From the NCBI GenBank assembly GCA_965220625.1, contig CBDCQN010000003.1, forward strand, positions 1,994,186 to 2,058,185: 64,000 nt of DNA, in the 5' to 3' direction. Positions 25,229-50,593 of this stretch are shown one piece after another. Made by a program: the position numbers and the translations under genes. This DNA comes from Dehalococcoidia bacterium. GTDB taxonomy: Bacteria; Chloroflexota; Dehalococcoidia; Lucifugimonadales; UBA3495. The notes below the pieces were generated by a model, which had not been told where the DNA came from, did not search any database, and saw nothing but the letters and a program-made list of their open reading frames with translations. Position 1 is the stretch's first letter; each line of letters starts with the position of its first letter.

Positions 25229-25531
25229 TCAGCTGCGGGTAGCCAGCGTGATGAGGTTGGCTACCAGCGTGGCTATAGTCGCTGCGCCTAAGCCGTATAG
25301 CACGAACATTAGCTTGTCTAACCGGGTATTCGTTTCAGTAATGCGAGCGTGACCGTCATCAAAGCGTGTGTTGAAATCAGACCGCATATCCTCAAAGCGG
25401 GTATTGAAGTCAGACCGCATATCCTCAAGGCGGGCGTTGAAATCAGACCGCATATCGTCCAGCCGTTGGTTGGTAGCTTCCTGTCTCTCCTCCAGCCGGC
25501 CGAGACGTTCCTCATCAGTTGCCATCGTCAT
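25229..25531 (-). CDS. small tail-anchored coiled-coil protein with three 11-residue repeats (family member P1)
   Basis: LDDMRSDFNAR/LEDMRSDFNTR/FEDMRSDFNTR followed by a C-terminal TM helix (LMFVLYGLGAATIATLVANLITL). Paralogs at 39248, 40596 and 49601. Confidence 0.65.
   Translation of the reverse strand: MTMATDEERLGRLEERQEATNQRLDDMRSDFNARLEDMRSDFNTRFEDMRSDFNTRFDDGHARITETNTRLDKLMFVLYGLGAATIATLVANLITLATRS
25364..25462. repeat. 33-bp x 3 in-frame tandem repeat inside the small protein gene
   Basis: Units 25364-25396, 25397-25429 and 25430-25462, read directly. Confidence 0.9.
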
Positions 25532-37944: not shown

Positions 37945-37972
37945 GTGGGGGCGCTTCGTGAAGCGCCCCCAC
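37945..37972. terminator. bidirectional stem-loop between convergent genes
   Basis: gtgggggcgctt cgtg aagcgcccccac gives a perfect 12-bp GC-rich stem. Confidence 0.6.
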
Positions 37973-38015: not shown

Positions 38016-39167
38016 CTAACCCTTGAAAGCCGGCATCACCTCTTCGGCGAAGATGCTCAACTGGTCTTTGAACACTTCCAGGGGCATGCCCATCACCGAG
38101 CCGATGTTGACCCGCTCCACTCCGGGGTACTTCTCTTCAGCGGACTTCAGGCGCTCGACTACCGACTCGGGAGGTCCGCAGAGCCACGAGCCTGCTTCGA
38201 CCGCCTGCTCAAGGGTCGGAAGCTCGACACCGCGAGAGCGCCCGCCGTCGGCCACCGACTCAATCTGCTCCGGCGTCAGCGGCATGAGCCCCAAGGGAGC
38301 GGCGAACTTCATCGCCTCCTCGAAGTACGGCTTGGCCGTTTCGATGGCTTTCTCCTTGGTTTCGGCCATGAACACCCGGTAGCCCAGCGCCACGCCCTCG
38401 CCCAGCCGGGTCTCCCGCCCGTAGGCTAGCTGCGCTTCCTGGTACATCCGCATACGCTCGCCCAACACCGGCTCGGGGTTGTTTGCGATCAACGGCTTGA
38501 TGCCCATTTTGGCCATGAAGTCGATGCCACGAGGGTTGCCGCTGACCAAGGGCTGCCAGATGTCCACCGGCTGGTTGATGGGCCGGGGGACCAGCGTCAG
38601 CTTCTCCAGCTCGTAGCCCCGGTACGGCACCCGCGCCGGTATCTGAAAATACTTACCTTGGTGGGAAAAGGACTCTTCGTTAAACGCCTTGATAATCACT
38701 TCGACCTGTTCTTCGAACAGTTCCCGGTTGGCGTCGGCATCCCGCATCGGCGAGCCGAACGTCTCAACTTCCCGCGTGTGGTAGCCGCGGCCGACGCCGA
38801 AAATCACCCTGCCCTTGGACAATATGTCAGCCATGGCGAAGTCTTCGGCCAACCGGAGTGGGTGCCACATCGGCGTGATGTTGAAACCGCAGCCGTATTT
38901 GAGGTTTTCGGTCTGGGTGGCCAAGTACAGGCCCAGCATCAACAGGTTGGGAATTCCCTCGTAGCCTTCCGGCTGGAAATGGTGCTCGGCCATCCAAAAC
39001 TCGTTAAAGCCATTCTTTTCCAGATGCCGGGCGATGTCCAGGGCCCAGTCGTAGGTCTCGACCAGTTGCTCGTTGGAATACCAGCGGTCATTGGCAGGAG
39101 TACCGTTGAACCCGATATTGTCGTCGACCACATGGCCGGCATAAGAGGCTGAGAAATTGGTGAACAT
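38016..39167 (-). CDS. LLM-class (luciferase-like) flavin-dependent monooxygenase
   Basis: FWMAEHHFQPEGY... and GRVIFGVGRGY are LLM motifs. Confidence 0.85.
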   Translation of the reverse strand: MFTNFSASYAGHVVDDNIGFNGTPANDRWYSNEQLVETYDWALDIARHLEKNGFNEFWMAEHHFQPEGYEGIPNLLMLGLYLATQTENLKYGCGFNITPMWHPLRLAEDFAMADILSKGRVIFGVGRGYHTREVETFGSPMRDADANRELFEEQVEVIIKAFNEESFSHQGKYFQIPARVPYRGYELEKLTLVPRPINQPVDIWQPLVSGNPRGIDFMAKMGIKPLIANNPEPVLGERMRMYQEAQLAYGRETRLGEGVALGYRVFMAETKEKAIETAKPYFEEAMKFAAPLGLMPLTPEQIESVADGGRSRGVELPTLEQAVEAGSWLCGPPESVVERLKSAEEKYPGVERVNIGSVMGMPLEVFKDQLSIFAEEVMPAFKG

Positions 39168-39247: not shown

Positions 39248-39517
39248 TTAGCCGCCCAGCAGGGTAATTACGATACTTGCCACCACCGCGGCTATGATCG
39301 TTGCGCCGAACCCGAACATACCAAACATCAACCGGTCAAGCCGCGCTTCCAGCCGGGCAAACTGCCGGTCGTTATGCTCCTCATGGCGGGCCATTACCTG
39401 GTCCAGCCGCGCCTCGAGACGAGTAATCCGCTCGTTGGTTTGGACTTGTTCACCCTCCAGACGCCCCAAAGCGCGGTATACTTCGGTCGCGTCAATCTGC
39501 GTGGTCTCAGTCGCCAT
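39248..39517 (-). CDS. small tail-anchored coiled-coil protein (family member P2)
   Basis: LGRLEGEQVQTNERITRLEARLDQV...FARLEARLDRLMFGMFGFGATIIAAVVASIVITLLGG shows 11-residue periodicity plus a C-terminal TM helix. Confidence 0.6.
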   Translation of the reverse strand: MATETTQIDATEVYRALGRLEGEQVQTNERITRLEARLDQVMARHEEHNDRQFARLEARLDRLMFGMFGFGATIIAAVVASIVITLLGG

Positions 39518-39580
39518 GTCATCCTTCTCTCATACGGTCTGGGGTGGACGTTCGAAATGGCGGCTTTCGGCCAGCCGCCT

Positions 39581-40498
39581 CTACTCCCGCACCTGGCTGG
39601 GGGCCGGGTTGTGCAGCTCCAGGCCAATAGTAGCCGGAAAGACCCGCGCCAGTTCCTCGACAGTCCACTTGCCTTGTTTTTGAATGGTCTTGACCGGTTC
39701 CGGCTCGTTGAGCAGGTTGATGAGTCCCTCGGTGACGTGGAACACATGGCCGTTGACGTGGGCCGCCTCGTCGGAGGCAAGCCAGGTTACCATGGGAGCT
39801 ATGTCTTCCGGGCCGCCCCGCAACGTGATGCTGGCGCCGGTGCTGATTCCCCGGGCCGTACGCAGTTCCCGCGCCTCGTCGGGCACGCTGGTGATCATCC
39901 GTGTGGAAGCGCTGGGGGATATCGCATTGGCCGTCACGCCATAACGTCCCATGTCCCGCGCCACCACCCGGGTAAAGCCGGCGATGCCGTCTTTGGCCGC
40001 GCCGTAGTTGGCTTGGCCGGAGTTGCCGTAGAGCCCGGATGTCGAGCTGAAGGTGATAACCCGGCCGGAACGCTGTTGGCGGAACAAAACACAAGCGTTC
40101 TTGACGACTGAGAAGGTCCCTTTCAGGTGCACGGCGATAACGTCGTCCCACTCCTCTTCGCTCATGTTGAAGACCATGCGGTCCCGGAGGATGCCAGCCA
40201 CCGTGACCACGATGTCCAGCTTGCCGAAATTGTCCAAGGCAGTCTGGACGATCTTCTCTCCGCCGTCCATGGTGGCCACCGATTCCATGCAGGCCGCGGC
40301 CTCTCCGCCGTTCTCCCTGATCTCGGCCACCACCTGCCCCGCCACCGAATCGTCGGAGCCGGAGCCGTCCACGTTGACCCCCGGATCGACCACCACGACC
40401 TTTGCGCCCTGCGCGGCCATCAGCATGGCCACGCCACGGCCGATGCCGCGGCCCGCGCCGGTTACAATTGCGACTTTGTCTTCGAGGAGGTTGGGCAT
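39581..40498 (-). CDS. SDR family oxidoreductase, MFE-2-type dehydrogenase-like (paralog 1)
   Basis: VTGAGRGIGRG, NYGAAK catalytic YxxxK, plus a roughly 90-aa C-terminal extension. Roughly 70 percent identical by eye to 41081-42001 over the core. Confidence 0.85.
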   Translation of the reverse strand: MPNLLEDKVAIVTGAGRGIGRGVAMLMAAQGAKVVVVDPGVNVDGSGSDDSVAGQVVAEIRENGGEAAACMESVATMDGGEKIVQTALDNFGKLDIVVTVAGILRDRMVFNMSEEEWDDVIAVHLKGTFSVVKNACVLFRQQRSGRVITFSSTSGLYGNSGQANYGAAKDGIAGFTRVVARDMGRYGVTANAISPSASTRMITSVPDEARELRTARGISTGASITLRGGPEDIAPMVTWLASDEAAHVNGHVFHVTEGLINLLNEPEPVKTIQKQGKWTVEELARVFPATIGLELHNPAPSQVRE

Positions 40499-40595
40499 TT
40501 GTTTGGCCTCTTGAGATTGTTTCGTTATGGGGATTTTCGAGTGTCGGTCTAACCGCCCGCCCGAATCACAGTTTGAGCCGCCCTTCTTTCTCCGC

Positions 40596-41051
40596 CTAGC
40601 CGGGAAGCTTTTCCAAGACTGTTACTGTCGTGGTTATGGCTGCGGCCATAAGAATGGCCCCCAAAGAGAGCAAGGCCAGAAAGTAAGTGCGGGACTCTTT
40701 CCGCGCGGCTTCAACAAGTTGAAGCATTTCCCGGCGCGTCGAATCGTTCATATCCCGCGTGTCTTGTCGCAAGGCTTGGTTCGCCTCTCGCATCTCTTGT
40801 CGCAAGGCTTGATTCGCCTCTTGCATCTCTTGTCGCAAGGCTTGATTCGCCTCTTGCATCTCTTGTCGCAAGGCTTGGTTCGCCTCTTGCATCTCTTGTC
40901 GCAAGGCTTGATTCGCTTCTCGGGCCTCCTGACGCGCGGCGTCATTCCCCCGGATTATGGTATCCAAGCGGGCGTTCACGTCGTCGAAGCGCTGAACGTT
41001 GGCCTCTTGCAGCGCCTCCAGTCGAGTAATCCGTTCTTCTGGCGTTACCAT
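40596..41051 (-). CDS. small tail-anchored protein with five 11-residue repeats (family member P3)
   Basis: EANQALRQEMQ x5, N-terminal ERITRLEALQEANVQRFDDVNARLD, and C-terminal TM helix YFLALLSLGAILMAAAITTTV. Confidence 0.65.
   Translation of the reverse strand: MVTPEERITRLEALQEANVQRFDDVNARLDTIIRGNDAARQEAREANQALRQEMQEANQALRQEMQEANQALRQEMQEANQALRQEMREANQALRQDTRDMNDSTRREMLQLVEAARKESRTYFLALLSLGAILMAAAITTTVTVLEKLPG
40761..40925. repeat. 33-bp x 5 near-perfect in-frame tandem repeat
   Basis: Units 40761-40793, 40794-40826, 40827-40859, 40860-40892 and 40893-40925, read directly. Confidence 0.95.
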
Positions 41052-41080
41052 TCAGATTATTGCGCTGGCGTCAGCCGCCG

Positions 41081-42001
41081 CTACACCCGGGCCGGAGCGG
41101 GATTGTAGATGTCCTTGGTCAGCACGTCGGCGGCAATCGGCCTTAAGACGTCCAGGTCCCAGTGGCCGGACGGTTCGTATATAGAGCGTTGGGGACGGGG
41201 TTGAGACATTAGAGAGACGGTGTTTCCGTACACGAGGAAGGTCTGGCCGTTAACGTTGTCTGCGTAGTCTGAGGCCAGGTAACAGATGAAGGGAGCGATG
41301 GCGTCGGGGTCCAAGGCGCCCATGTCGAAGTCCTCGGTCAACGTGGCAACGCCGCTCCGCTCCCGGATCTCGGCCGCAGTGTCAGGGATGTCCCCAATCA
41401 TGCGGGTGGAGGCCCGTGGAGCGATGGCGTTGGCGGTTACACCGTACCGGCCCATGTCCTTGGCCACCACCTTGGTGAAGCCGGCGATTCCCGATTTGGC
41501 CGCGCCGTAGTTGGCCTGGCCGGAGTTGCCCACCAAGCCCGACTCCGATGTGAAGGTGATGATGCGGCCGGAGCGTTGTTGCCGGAAGAGTATGCAGGCA
41601 TTTTTGACCACGGTGAAGGTCCCTTTGAGATGGACCGCGATAACGTCGTCCCATTCCTGCTCGGTCATGTTGAATATCATCCGGTCACGGAGAATACCGG
41701 CGCAGGTGACGACAACATCCAGACGTCCGAAGGTGTCCACGGCGGTCTGAATAATCTTCTCGCCGCCCTCCATGGTCACCACCGATTCCATACAGGCCAC
41801 GGCGTCGCCGCCCGCAGCCTTGATCTCTTCGACCACCTGTGCCGCCACCGAGTTGTCGGCCCCGGACCCGTCGACGTTGACGCCCGGGTCCACCACTACG
41901 ACCTTGGCGCCTTCCGCCGCCATCTCCATGGCGACGCCACGGCCAATGCCACGGCCGGAGCCGGTCACGACAGCTACTTTGCCGGTTAGCGTGTCAACCA
42001 A
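41081..42001 (-). CDS. SDR family oxidoreductase, MFE-2-type dehydrogenase-like (paralog 2)
   Basis: VTGSGRGIGRG and NYGAAK, with the same architecture as 39581-40498. Confidence 0.85.
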   Translation of the reverse strand: MVDTLTGKVAVVTGSGRGIGRGVAMEMAAEGAKVVVVDPGVNVDGSGADNSVAAQVVEEIKAAGGDAVACMESVVTMEGGEKIIQTAVDTFGRLDVVVTCAGILRDRMIFNMTEQEWDDVIAVHLKGTFTVVKNACILFRQQRSGRIITFTSESGLVGNSGQANYGAAKSGIAGFTKVVAKDMGRYGVTANAIAPRASTRMIGDIPDTAAEIRERSGVATLTEDFDMGALDPDAIAPFICYLASDYADNVNGQTFLVYGNTVSLMSQPRPQRSIYEPSGHWDLDVLRPIAADVLTKDIYNPAPARV

Positions 42002-42231: not shown

Positions 42232-42660
42232 CTAGTTCTTGGGAAGAACTACAGTCGCCGAACCCGGGGTGGTCGTCTCTCCCTCCACGTTCTCAAGCCA
42301 GATATCGCAGTCCACCAAGTAGTTGGCGCCTTCCTGGTACTTTCGGGTCACCACCCCCTTGGCGGTGATGGGGCGGCCCGGACTATCCATGCCACGGTAC
42401 TGGCAGGCCAGCCGTCTCAGGGTGCCGTCTGGTCCCATCCAATCGGTCATCAGGTGGCCCAGAAAGGCATTCTTCAGCGCGCCGTGAAGAATTACATCAT
42501 CGAGGTTGTTGTTTTTCGCGTAATCCTTATCGTAGTGGATCTGGTAATAGTCGCCGGACGCCCCGGCGTACTTCACCAACTGCTGGGTGGTCGGGTCCTT
42601 CCGCAGGGAGGGTAGTTCCATTCCCTCGGAAACATCGTCCCAATAAACCTGGTCCGCCAT
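42232..42660 (-). CDS. MaoC-like (R)-specific enoyl-CoA hydratase, hot-dog fold
   Basis: YAGASGDYYQIHYDKDYA...ILHG is the MaoC dehydratase motif. Confidence 0.8.
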   Translation of the reverse strand: MADQVYWDDVSEGMELPSLRKDPTTQQLVKYAGASGDYYQIHYDKDYAKNNNLDDVILHGALKNAFLGHLMTDWMGPDGTLRRLACQYRGMDSPGRPITAKGVVTRKYQEGANYLVDCDIWLENVEGETTTPGSATVVLPKN

Positions 42661-42724: not shown

Positions 42725-43183
42725 CTAATATCGAATCGACGTGTTGGTCTGAGTGGCGACTACCTGATCGAACTGGTTCCGGTAGGTGATGACGTAGATC
42801 GTGATGACCATCAATCCCATCCGGCCCGTTCGTTCGTTGATGTCGGTGATGCCGGAGACGGCGGTGATGCGGTCCCCGGCGCGGACGGGCTCGAAATACT
42901 CCCATTCGCTGCCGCCGTCCAGCAACCGGTCATAAGGCATGTGGAACGGGTACTCGGCTCGACCCACCGGCACCGACCGCAGGAAGGTCGGCGGGGCGAC
43001 GAGCCCGCCGTAGCGGGACTGCCGCGCGGCCATTTCGTCGTTGAATACGGGGTTATCGTCGCCTATGGCCTGGGCGAATTTAATAATCGCCCCTTTTTCC
43101 ACGTCCGCAGTCACGGGTCGGCTCTCTTGGCCGATAGCCCGGTCACGCATTTCTTCGGTCAAAAACGACGCTGGAGTGTTCAC
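42725..43183 (-). CDS. MaoC N-terminal-type (FAS1-like) dehydratase domain protein
   Basis: IIKFAQAIGDDNPVFNDE...GGLVAPPTF is the pattern of the non-catalytic hot-dog partner. Confidence 0.75.
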   Translation of the reverse strand: MNTPASFLTEEMRDRAIGQESRPVTADVEKGAIIKFAQAIGDDNPVFNDEMAARQSRYGGLVAPPTFLRSVPVGRAEYPFHMPYDRLLDGGSEWEYFEPVRAGDRITAVSGITDINERTGRMGLMVITIYVITYRNQFDQVVATQTNTSIRY

Positions 43184-43424
43184 TTGCAGCCTCTAACCCG
43201 GCCCTCAAAATCGCAGTCTACAAGTAGGGTATAGTAGTGTCAAGAACGGTCCGAGCGCGTAGTGTTCAGAGTTGATGAGGGTGGATTCCAGCAGGGCGGG
43301 ATGACGCATCAAGTCTGAACACGCGCCGAAGCGGCTGCGAGCCGGGTGCGGTTGGCTCGTTGCCAAGCCCGTTACGTCGTAATATAGTCTGGACACTCAA
43401 CCGGCCCGACCTCTCCGTTTTCGG

Positions 43425-49600: not shown

Positions 49601-49765
49601 ATGGCTGCCATAGGAGAACCAGTCGCTAGGCTCGAAGGAGCCTATGAGCAAGTAGACAAGCGGCTGGACGATATGAACCGGCGGCTGAACACTATTTTGG
49701 TCCTGCTTTGCGGTTCTTGGGTCACGATAATTGCCGCGATCATTGGACTGTATTTCAAAGGGTAG
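49601..49765 (+). CDS. 54-aa tail-anchored protein, minimal member (P4) of the repeat family; not in the supplied ORF track
   Basis: My own translation is MAAIGEPVARLEGAYEQVDKRLDDMNRRLNTILVLLCGSWVTIIAAIIGLYFKG. It shares the RLE..Q...RLDDMN.RL plus TM pattern with P1-P3. Confidence 0.55.
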   Translation: MAAIGEPVARLEGAYEQVDKRLDDMNRRLNTILVLLCGSWVTIIAAIIGLYFKG

Positions 49766-49798: not shown

Positions 49799-50593
49799 AT
49801 GGACCTTTCGCTGGAAGGGAAGATCGCCATCGTAACCGGCGGCAGCAAGGGAATCGGCCGCACCACGGCCTTGGCGCTGGCCCAAGAGGGCGTCGACGTC
49901 GCGATCTGCGCCCGCGGCATGGAGGACCTGGAGGACGCGGCGGCGGATATACGCGCCAAGACTGGACGCAGGGTCGTGGCGGTCCGCGCCGATACCGGCG
50001 TCCCCGATGACATCAGCAACTTGGTGGCCGTCACCGTGGCCGGGCTTGGGGGCGTGGATATTCTGGTCAACAACGCCGTGAACTCCACCGCCGCGCCCTT
50101 CATGGAGTTGGCTGACGAGGACTGGCTCAATCACATCAACGTCAAGGTGATGGGCTACGTGCGGTGCTCCCGGGCAGTCATCCCCCACATGCAAGCTCGC
50201 GGCGGAGGCCGCATCATCAACATCGGCGGTATGGCCGCGCGGTCGGCCAGTTCTCTGACCAACAGCAACGGCGTGACCAATTCGGCCGTTTCAAACATCG
50301 CCAAGAACCTCTCCGACCAGGTCGCCAAAGACGGCATACTGGTCAACTGCATCCATCCCGGCACCACCCGGACTCCCCGTCAGACCATGATGTTGGAACG
50401 CCAGGCCAAGGACGGGAATATATCCATGGAAGAGGCCGAGCGGCGGGCTGTCGCCCAGATACCCATCGGCCGGATGGTGGAGCCCGAGGACATCGCCGAC
50501 CTGGTACTCTTTCTGGTTTCCGACCGGGCCGGGGCCATCACCGGCCAGACCATAGCCGTCGAGGGCGGCGCGGGCCGGGGGATCCACTACTGA
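49799..50593 (+). CDS. SDR family oxidoreductase (FabG-like)
   Basis: VTGGSKGIGR and NNAV. The serine-tyrosine-lysine region is atypical (SNGVTNSAVSNIAK), but the overall layout is classical SDR. Confidence 0.85.
   Translation: MDLSLEGKIAIVTGGSKGIGRTTALALAQEGVDVAICARGMEDLEDAAADIRAKTGRRVVAVRADTGVPDDISNLVAVTVAGLGGVDILVNNAVNSTAAPFMELADEDWLNHINVKVMGYVRCSRAVIPHMQARGGGRIINIGGMAARSASSLTNSNGVTNSAVSNIAKNLSDQVAKDGILVNCIHPGTTRTPRQTMMLERQAKDGNISMEEAERRAVAQIPIGRMVEPEDIADLVLFLVSDRAGAITGQTIAVEGGAGRGIHY

Follow-up and report, generated by a model that had tools for sequence, protein, structure and literature searches.

We report that a gene cluster of a marine Dehalococcoidia bacterium of the SAR202 type is probably a conserved catabolic cluster, of a kind suited to fatty-acid-type breakdown, with two ancient short-chain dehydrogenase/reductase (SDR) paralogues, SDR-A and SDR-B, beside which two small genes (P3, between the two SDRs, and P2, after SDR-B) are later-arrived accessory genes and not parts of a duplicated module. 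The cluster lies in a window of 64,000 nt (G000:C3:1994186-2058185; host genome 4.6 Mb, 61.5% G+C) and consists of seven minus-strand genes: two hot-dog genes, SDR-A, P3, SDR-B, P2 and a luciferase-like monooxygenase (LLM) gene. Two further members of the small-protein family occur in the window, P1 and P4, the latter just upstream of a third SDR (SDR3). A sequence-only reading of this stretch had proposed the tandem duplication of a unit made up of an SDR and a small repeat protein. The open reading frame (ORF) coordinates and strands that it gave were reproduced, as were the spacers of 29 nt (SDR-A to P3), 63 nt (SDR-B to P2) and 33 nt (P4 to SDR3), the two hot-dog genes 5' of the SDRs (PF13452, PF01575) and the LLM gene 3' of them (PF00296).

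Age of the SDR pair and distribution of P2 and P3

A total of 80 loci, one genome per species, were recovered in an SDR-A scan of related Dehalococcoidia (SAR202-type) with 72-97% identity (loci of relatives are labelled L, e.g., L033, and their genomes G, e.g., G005). A second SDR lay directly 3' of SDR-A in 79 of the 80 species loci and the FAS1_DH and MaoC hot-dog genes lay 5' of the SDR pair in 79/80, with an LLM gene following 3' on the same strand in 59/80 (counted within the fetched flank, some loci being truncated). On a tree of 154 first- and second-position SDRs the A/B label changed exactly once, SDR-A and SDR-B forming separate clades. The presence of the tandem pair in nearly all loci together with this single label change shows, by sequence comparison, that the SDR duplication is older than the sampled species. 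At one locus (L108:4966-5882) two overlapping frames matched the second SDR, a pattern suggestive of either a frameshift or an error in the assembly.

The P3 and/or P2 slots were filled in 18 of the 80 species loci, and the remaining 62 carried no such small gene. P3-type orthologues (MVTPEERITRLEA...LERLPG) were found in the same slot in 10 other loci and a tail-anchored P2-type ORF followed SDR-B in 12 loci; across about a dozen species, P3-type genes were always directly after SDR-A and P2-type genes always directly after SDR-B. The small-gene carriers on the SDR-A+B tree comprised one 38-leaf clade (which includes the window) plus L052 and L077, with at least nine presence/absence changes over the tree and the compact form in two deep clades.

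P3-type proteins are built from an N-terminal MVTPEERITRLEAxQEAN motif, 3 to ~15 repeats of the EAREANEAARQ type, a transmembrane (TM) helix and LERLPG, and P2-type proteins from MTTE..PQ..EVYRxLGRLEEGQ, repeats of the RHEERNEQQFA type, NRRIDRLWY and a TM helix. Alignment of the two profiles with hhalign gave 28% probability over 18 non-colinear columns, and phmmer/jackhmmer searches started from P3 reached P1, P4 and C1_733568 (a family member elsewhere in the same genome) before P2. By these comparisons, P2-type and P3-type proteins are two different, distantly related family members and not each other's closest relatives. Because the SDR pair is present in 79/80 loci against 18/80 for the small genes, and because the two small-protein types are not closest relatives, the sequences hold no duplicated unit of SDR plus small gene, and the tandem module of the sequence-only reading was not borne out.

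Rapid turnover of the small genes was observed between close relatives. L033, whose concatenated SDR-A+B proteins share 98% identity with those of the window, lacks P3. DNA homology between the two is essentially complete to just past the SDR-A stop codon, gives way to ~55 unrelated nt and resumes ~70 nt before SDR-B (window 40596-41051 compared to L033:4900-5060), and the tail-encoding 3' end of SDR-A hardly differs in L033. A microhomology deletion was considered for the absence of P3, since GGCGGCT flanks P3, but the ~55 nt of unrelated filler do not fit a clean repeat-mediated deletion. Five copies of the 33-nt P3 repeat were present in the window and L032 and four in L031. The 3' half of P2 and its flanks were near-identical in all four sequences (window, L031, L032 and L033), with the 5' half of the window P2 strongly divergent and its upstream spacer 33 nt longer (window 39400-39560 compared to L031, L032 and L033). 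A 33-nt repeat encoding ARHEEQNERQF was present in 2, 3 and 4 copies in the three relatives and in none in the window P2, whose 5' half looks like a recombination or gene-conversion patch at the sequence level. Tandem arrays of small genes were also detected, with three P3-type genes in L036:4955-6667 and two P2-type genes each in L060:6740-7752 and L084:6834-7489, the repeat number differing per copy.

The gap between SDR-A and SDR-B was shorter than 200 nt and held no gene in 42 loci, held a Lipocalin_5 (PF13924) gene of ~145 aa in 35 loci (of 79 species) and held other ORFs in a few. A tail-anchored small ORF was present in the gap in 10 loci (L035, L036, L046, L048, L054, L060, L062, L071, L083 and L084), at least nine of which also have Lipocalin_5; L048 ends inside the gap. 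No homologue of Lipocalin_5 was found anywhere in the window's genome, the gene being seen among L037-L096 (e.g., L037:4930-5373). Two loci (L049:4934-5703; L050:4935-5303) have ORFs of 118-138 aa with a VDTGAS motif in the SDR gap that by eye resemble retropepsin-type aspartyl proteases.

The dehydrogenases and a putative split hydratase

SDR-A and SDR-B are 64% identical overall, with 78.5% identity over residues 1-205, 41.5% over residues 206-260 and 26.7% in the tail, so that the estimate by eye of about 70% over the core was near to the computed values. Both contain a classical SDR core (PF00106/PF13561; 1e-38 to 1e-42) with the TGSGRGIG/TGAGRGIG and NYGAAK motifs. The Pfam SDR domain ends at about residue 257-259 of 305/306, leaving a C-terminal extension of ~45 aa; the extension shared by the two proteins is therefore present as had been claimed, but it is half the ~90 aa proposed and the two tails are only 27% identical. 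The closest solved relatives of both SDRs are the dehydrogenase domains of Candida MFE-2 (2et6), mycobacterial SDRs (3qlj, 7ulh, 4kzp), ChsB1 (7lg9) and mammalian HSD17B4 (1gz6, 1zbq), with SDR-A matching 2et6 at 3.4e-88, 3qlj at 4e-62 and 7lg9 at 9e-52. The alignments to 2et6, 3qlj, 7ulh and 7lg9 extend to query residue 286-296 (3qlj, query 5-296; 7lg9, 4-287).

7LG9 is Mycobacterium tuberculosis ChsB1, a hydroxyacyl-CoA dehydrogenase of the MFE-2 family (PMC8204306). In this family, extra C-terminal beta7-beta9/alpha11 elements reach the partner subunit and form a swapped dimer interface, and the ChsB1 variable loop 217-230 corresponds roughly to the stretch of lowered identity between SDR-A and SDR-B at 206-260 (PMC8204306). 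By sequence, SDR-A and SDR-B are dehydrogenases of the MFE-2/ChsB1 type, predicted to carry out the NAD-dependent oxidation of (3R)-hydroxyacyl-CoA. Since their tails align with the solved MFE-2-type enzymes, in which this role has been described (PMC8204306), the C-terminal tail is, on homology, the dimer-swap element that is a hallmark of the family and no oddity; the sequence-only reading had called it unusual, which its alignment with 3qlj, 7lg9 and 2et6 contradicts. The best NCBIfam model for both proteins was PRK07791, at 283.4 and 290.1 bits, and because these scores are under the curated cut-off of 373 they indicate a subfamily related to, but distinct from, PRK07791.

The adjacent hot-dog genes look, by sequence, like a HadA/HadB-type split (R)-hydratase, with scores to the NCBIfam HadA and HadB models that are far under cut-off. 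By eye, an Asp/His stretch (SGDYYQIH) is present in the 142-aa subunit and the 152-aa subunit has GDDNPVF, without the His; the 152-aa protein is probably the non-catalytic partner in a split (R)-specific enoyl-CoA hydratase. The cluster (hot-dog, MaoC, SDR-A, SDR-B and LLM) would thus encode an unfused counterpart of the MFE-2 and mycobacterial ChsH-ChsB chemistry, in which the split (R)-specific enoyl-CoA hydratase would act before the (3R)-hydroxyacyl-CoA dehydrogenase. Because the tails are the dimer-swap element of the family, SDR-A and SDR-B may also heterodimerise via swapped tails, by analogy to the A and B dehydrogenase domains of yeast MFE-2.

The resemblance to a disassembled MFE-2 suggested by the sequence-only reading therefore held, given the MFE-2 domains and ChsB1 among the PDB relatives and the apparent HadA/HadB-type hot-dog pair. 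Peroxisomal MFE-2 of yeast shares the implied chemistry of (R)-hydratase plus (3R)-hydroxyacyl-CoA dehydrogenase, supplies the best solved relatives of the SDRs and likewise has two paralogous dehydrogenase units side by side with the family-typical C-terminal extension. In contrast, the present cluster encodes every unit as a separate polypeptide, divides the putative hydratase between two hot-dog subunits, lacks an SCP2 domain and has an LLM attached. M. tuberculosis ChsB1 (Rv3502c; PDB 7LG9/7LGB) is a stand-alone bacterial MFE-2-type dehydrogenase that forms a swapped beta9/alpha11 dimer (PMC8204306), and the adjacent two-subunit hot-dog genes of the present cluster look similar to HadA/HadB. 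ChsB1 with the ChsH-type MaoC hydratases, and the HadA/HadB split dehydratases, are the nearest parallels in bacteria. Compared to ChsB1 and HadAB, however, the NCBIfam scores here are under their cut-offs, the surroundings are not those of a steroid catabolic cluster, and two tandem dehydrogenase paralogues stand where M. tuberculosis has one.

The small-protein family and its neighbours

The ratio of nonsynonymous to synonymous substitution rates (dN/dS) was roughly 0.18 for P3-type and 0.26 for P2-type genes, and the N-terminal motif and C-terminal TM helix are kept across orthologues despite saturated synonymous sites. Slot-specific orthologues with conserved termini, together with dN/dS of ~0.2, show by sequence comparison that P2 and P3 are real genes under purifying selection. 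The same observations bear on the proposal that slippage-prone repeat DNA between genes gave rise to these ORFs as neutral or decaying by-products without protein function. Presence/absence and copy-number polymorphism among near-identical relatives, the lack of curated family matches and the lack of an obvious Shine-Dalgarno sequence before P3 (by eye) would fit such an origin. The conservation of both termini at saturated synonymous change, the repeats, which are always in frame (33-nt units), and the RLEGAYEQ signature, invariant in the hundreds of homologues that share it, all speak against it, and we regard it as extremely improbable.

P3 was predicted by AlphaFold2 (11-sequence alignment) as one continuous helix over residues 4-148 with a mean predicted local distance difference test score of 88. 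Arg/Lys residues precede the TM helix and a signal peptide is absent, and for these reasons the small proteins would be N-in, cytoplasm-facing rods with a single C-terminal membrane helix. Sequence searches of Pfam, NCBIfam and the PDB placed the small proteins in no curated family. Recurrent weak hits on trimeric coiled coils (TolA_bind_tri, Lpp, HSBP1, CLZ and HA2) suggest an oligomer at the level of sequence, and homology to DUF1451, ApoLp-III, CCDC90-like proteins, StbC, PA2779, TolA_bind_tri, Lpp or HA2 was rejected, these weak hits being taken as matches of composition or architecture. An apolipoprotein-like lipid-binding helix was likewise discarded, since an 11-residue period and E-values between 4e-3 and 4e-4 were its sole basis. 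In the PDB, positions 8-80 of 84 of the family profile (coiled coil plus TM helix) matched residues 372-464 of a 475-aa 'conserved membrane protein' (8qox_B; E 0.0019).

A likeness to XhlA-type proteins was also detected. Sub-threshold matches to Pfam XhlA (PF10779) were obtained for 12 of 23 members (best 6.6e-4), and phrog_1193 ('hemolysin'), which we take to be XhlA-like, was matched by 11/23 (best E 5.4e-8), with P0063 matching the latter end to end (2-73 against 8-73 of 76; 1.3e-5). Like XhlA-type proteins, family members have an N-terminal coiled coil and a single C-terminal TM helix in 70-90 aa, and canonical members match phrog_1193 over their own full length. The family could accordingly descend from, or work like, phage XhlA-type lysis-associated proteins (holin accessories, or membrane-perturbing or stress peptides), with its operon positions incidental. 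Size and architecture agree with this, but scores of this kind are inflated by coiled-coil-plus-TM composition and the Pfam gathering score was never reached. In the window, P2, P3 and P4 had no match to phrog_1193 and P1 matched only at 0.006. No holin, endolysin or prophage genes, and hence no lysis cassette, were found beside any member inspected; the members form a chromosomal family with multiple stable copies under purifying selection and expandable 7- and 11-residue repeats, and a phage-type origin or function is in our view very unlikely.

The window's genome contains seven tail-anchored members (P1-P4, C1:733568, C1:341054 and C1:1535569) and ~44 SDR genes. Only P2, P3 and P4 (3/7) are SDR-adjacent, with the others 8-106 kb from the nearest SDR (P1, 14 kb). 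The claim that three of four members sit beside SDRs was therefore true in the window and not genome-wide. Neighbours of the non-SDR members were surE and nitrile hydratase, rplI-dnaB, a PIN-like pair and a radical-SAM-like gene; Pfam confirmed only SurE and the nitrile hydratase alpha subunit among these, and the rest were assigned by eye. Three look-alike ORFs with R-x-D/E-rich heptad/hendecad repeats have the hydrophobic helix at the N-terminus (C3:1800552-1800833, C3:334154-334447 and C3:1084858-1085514) and could be a cousin family of reversed topology or a composition artefact.

Family profile searches returned members in 20 of 24 genomes of the genus, in 4 of 16 other families of the order and in 3 of 300 genomes across the phylum. 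By sequence, the family is thus one of undescribed tail-anchored coiled-coil proteins of familiar architecture, frequent in the genus and seldom found in the rest of the phylum. Canonical members (RVSRLEGAYEQVDRRLDD...NSRFNTLYVL..GSWVT) were sited after a PALP gene, between xseA and DUF4389/xseB, and after ilvD. The housekeeping pair xseA and xseB at L144:2770-5815 encloses a 73-aa canonical member together with two DUF4389 genes. G011 had 18 profile matches, with tandem arrays at C1:1884387-1885562 and 2423342-2424173 and several matches within one 250-aa frame (C1:2784389-2785042), and the family is by this sequence evidence locally expanded in that genome.

Across 24 relatives, ~66 distinct sites were found, ~55 without an SDR in the flanks (~1.5-1.8 kb) and 11 with one. 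The SDR-adjacent 11 were the same operon in ten genomes (G004, G005, G006, G008, G011, G015, G017, G021, G022 and G024) plus P4-SDR3 in G005. P4 upstream of SDR3 was thus also present in one close relative, G005 (L175), and in 26 of 26 other genomes no tail-anchored ORF was found 5' of the SDR3 orthologue. Because ~55 of the 66 sites are without an SDR and the SDR3 orthologues lack the small ORF in 26/26, SDR linkage across the family is, in these sequences, largely absent beyond lineage-specific residence in this one operon. The sequence-only reading had itself named absent preferential linkage to SDRs as the finding that would count against it, and this is largely what was observed.

That reading also suggested that the small proteins may tether or organise the dehydrogenases at the membrane. 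In its full form, P2 and P3 (and P4) would be dedicated tethers or organisers of the neighbouring dehydrogenases for hydrophobic acyl-CoA substrates, with the SDR-plus-anchor unit tandemly duplicated. The short spacers, the retention of each small-gene type in its own slot (P3-type behind SDR-A, P2-type behind SDR-B) across roughly a dozen species, the predicted cytoplasm-facing rod with its membrane anchor and the Lipocalin_5 gene in the same slot in 35/79 species, its fold being one that binds hydrophobic ligands, are all in keeping with this. The greater part of the evidence points the other way: 62/80 species have the same SDR pair without a small gene, P3 is missing in a relative with 98%-identical SDRs whose SDR-A tail is essentially unchanged, the SDR duplication is older than the small genes, the P2 and P3 types are not close relatives, the family has no general linkage to SDRs, and the SDR tail is a known dimerisation element and no free docking arm. 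We consider dedicated tethers arising by module duplication unlikely. An obligate SDR tether in particular appears unlikely, with the slot-specific retention remaining as the point in favour of the tether idea.

A narrower version is that, in one SAR202 subclade, P3-type and P2-type proteins were recruited as length-tunable membrane tethers that hold SDR-A, SDR-B and perhaps the lipocalin-like protein at a set distance beneath the membrane to take up hydrophobic substrates, each 11-residue repeat adding ~1.6 nm of helix. The retention in specific slots would agree with such tethers; that most species, and also a near-identical relative, do without the small genes speaks against them, and we hold this version to be distinctly improbable. 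A clade-specific accessory role for P2 and P3 beside the SDRs may nonetheless exist, because the genes are strictly retained in their own slots in about a dozen species.

Cluster organisation and meaning

The features of the window are listed in Table 1. A promoter-like and a terminator-like site were found at the two ends of the cluster and no comparable site between its genes in a consensus scan, and for this reason the seven minus-strand genes from hot-dog to LLM, P3 and P2 included, look like a single transcription unit. The top NCBIfam matches of SDR3 were generic SDR subfamilies, under cut-off.

Table 1. Coordinates (window positions) of the catabolic cluster, its flanking signals and other small-protein family members.
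Feature	Positions	Strand	Details
Promoter-like site, 5' of first hot-dog gene	43215-43243	-	consensus match only, 10/12
Hot-dog subunit (FAS1_DH_region / HadA-like)	42725-43183	-	152 aa; PF13452 4.5e-31; NCBIfam HadA 1.8e-10, under curated cut-off
MaoC-type hydratase subunit (HadB-like)	42232-42660	-	142 aa; PF01575 9e-12; NCBIfam HadB 7e-14, under cut-off
SDR-A, MFE-2/ChsB1-type hydroxyacyl-CoA dehydrogenase paralogue	41081-42001	-	306 aa; PF00106/PF13561
P3, tail-anchored coiled-coil protein, P3-type subfamily, SDR-A/SDR-B gap	40596-41051	-	151 aa; ORF
P3 in-frame tandem repeat	40762-40920	-	33 bp x 4.8, 96% match, encodes EANQALRQEMQ; TRF
SDR-B, second MFE-2/ChsB1-type paralogue	39581-40498	-	305 aa; Pfam
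P2, tail-anchored coiled-coil protein, P2-type subfamily, after SDR-B	39248-39517	-	89 aa; ORF
LLM, final gene of apparent operon	38016-39167	-	383 aa; PF00296 1.4e-46
Terminator-like hairpin with T-run, 3' of LLM gene	37945-37972	-	12 pairs
P4, minimal small-protein family member	49601-49765	+	54 aa; ORF; carries canonical RLEGAYEQVDKRLDDMN signature common to homologues
SDR3, classical SDR, not MFE-2-type	49799-50593	+	264 aa; PF13561 1.3e-48
P1, small-protein family member, 3' of surE, no SDR nearby	25229-25531	-	100 aa
P1 repeat	25359-25456		33 bp x 3; TRF

In the reading that we favour, of a conserved catabolic cluster with later-arrived accessory genes, P3 and P2 would have entered the intergenic slots after SDR-A and after SDR-B well after the SDR duplication. 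Repeated loss, duplication and changes of length by way of the 33-nt repeats would have followed. Members of the family are typically found within unrelated operons or at their downstream end, and probably depend on these for transcription; P3 and P2 would ride on the operon transcript in the same way. Anchored in the membrane and facing the cytoplasm, the small proteins would assemble into oligomeric rods that drift in length as the repeats slip, and a general role at the membrane is more likely for them than an SDR-specific one. Escherichia coli ElaB, YqjD and YgaM (DUF883) are proteins of ~100 aa with a helical cytoplasmic N-domain and a C-terminal anchor, with several paralogues per genome and an association with ribosomes or stress. 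Their likeness to the present family is architectural only, and they would serve as a functional analogue for a general membrane-associated rod; DUF883 was not among the Pfam matches shown for the family, up to E 1.

Several points weigh against this account. The strict slot order, kept despite fast sequence change, exceeds what a pure passenger model needs. Three of seven members beside SDRs would be improbable if placement were random (~1e-3 to 1e-4; a rough and post hoc figure, with two operon slots that are non-independent). The SDR-A+B tree was built by a quick method and midpoint-rooted, and its root, and hence gain versus loss, is set by parsimony. Synonymous sites are saturated (dS ~1.8-1.9), which makes the dN/dS values rough, and co-transcription is read from spacing and consensus scans only.

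SAR202 bacteria reportedly oxidise recalcitrant marine organic matter via expanded families of monooxygenases, dehydrogenases and hydratases. The conserved module defined here, in which an apparent split (R)-hydratase accompanies an LLM and two ancient dehydrogenase paralogues of the MFE-2 type, offers a concrete target for biochemistry. Its definition also removes a tempting inference, that neighbouring small membrane genes are enzyme tethers derived from module duplication. The practical value is mainly one of annotation and the surprise is modest, the enzymes belonging to a known kind. The small-protein family is undescribed, and the present analysis documents it as an uncharacterised tail-anchored coiled-coil family that changes fast between near-identical relatives. 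Length-tunable tethers, if they were true, would be an undescribed way to organise a soluble beta-oxidation-type pathway.

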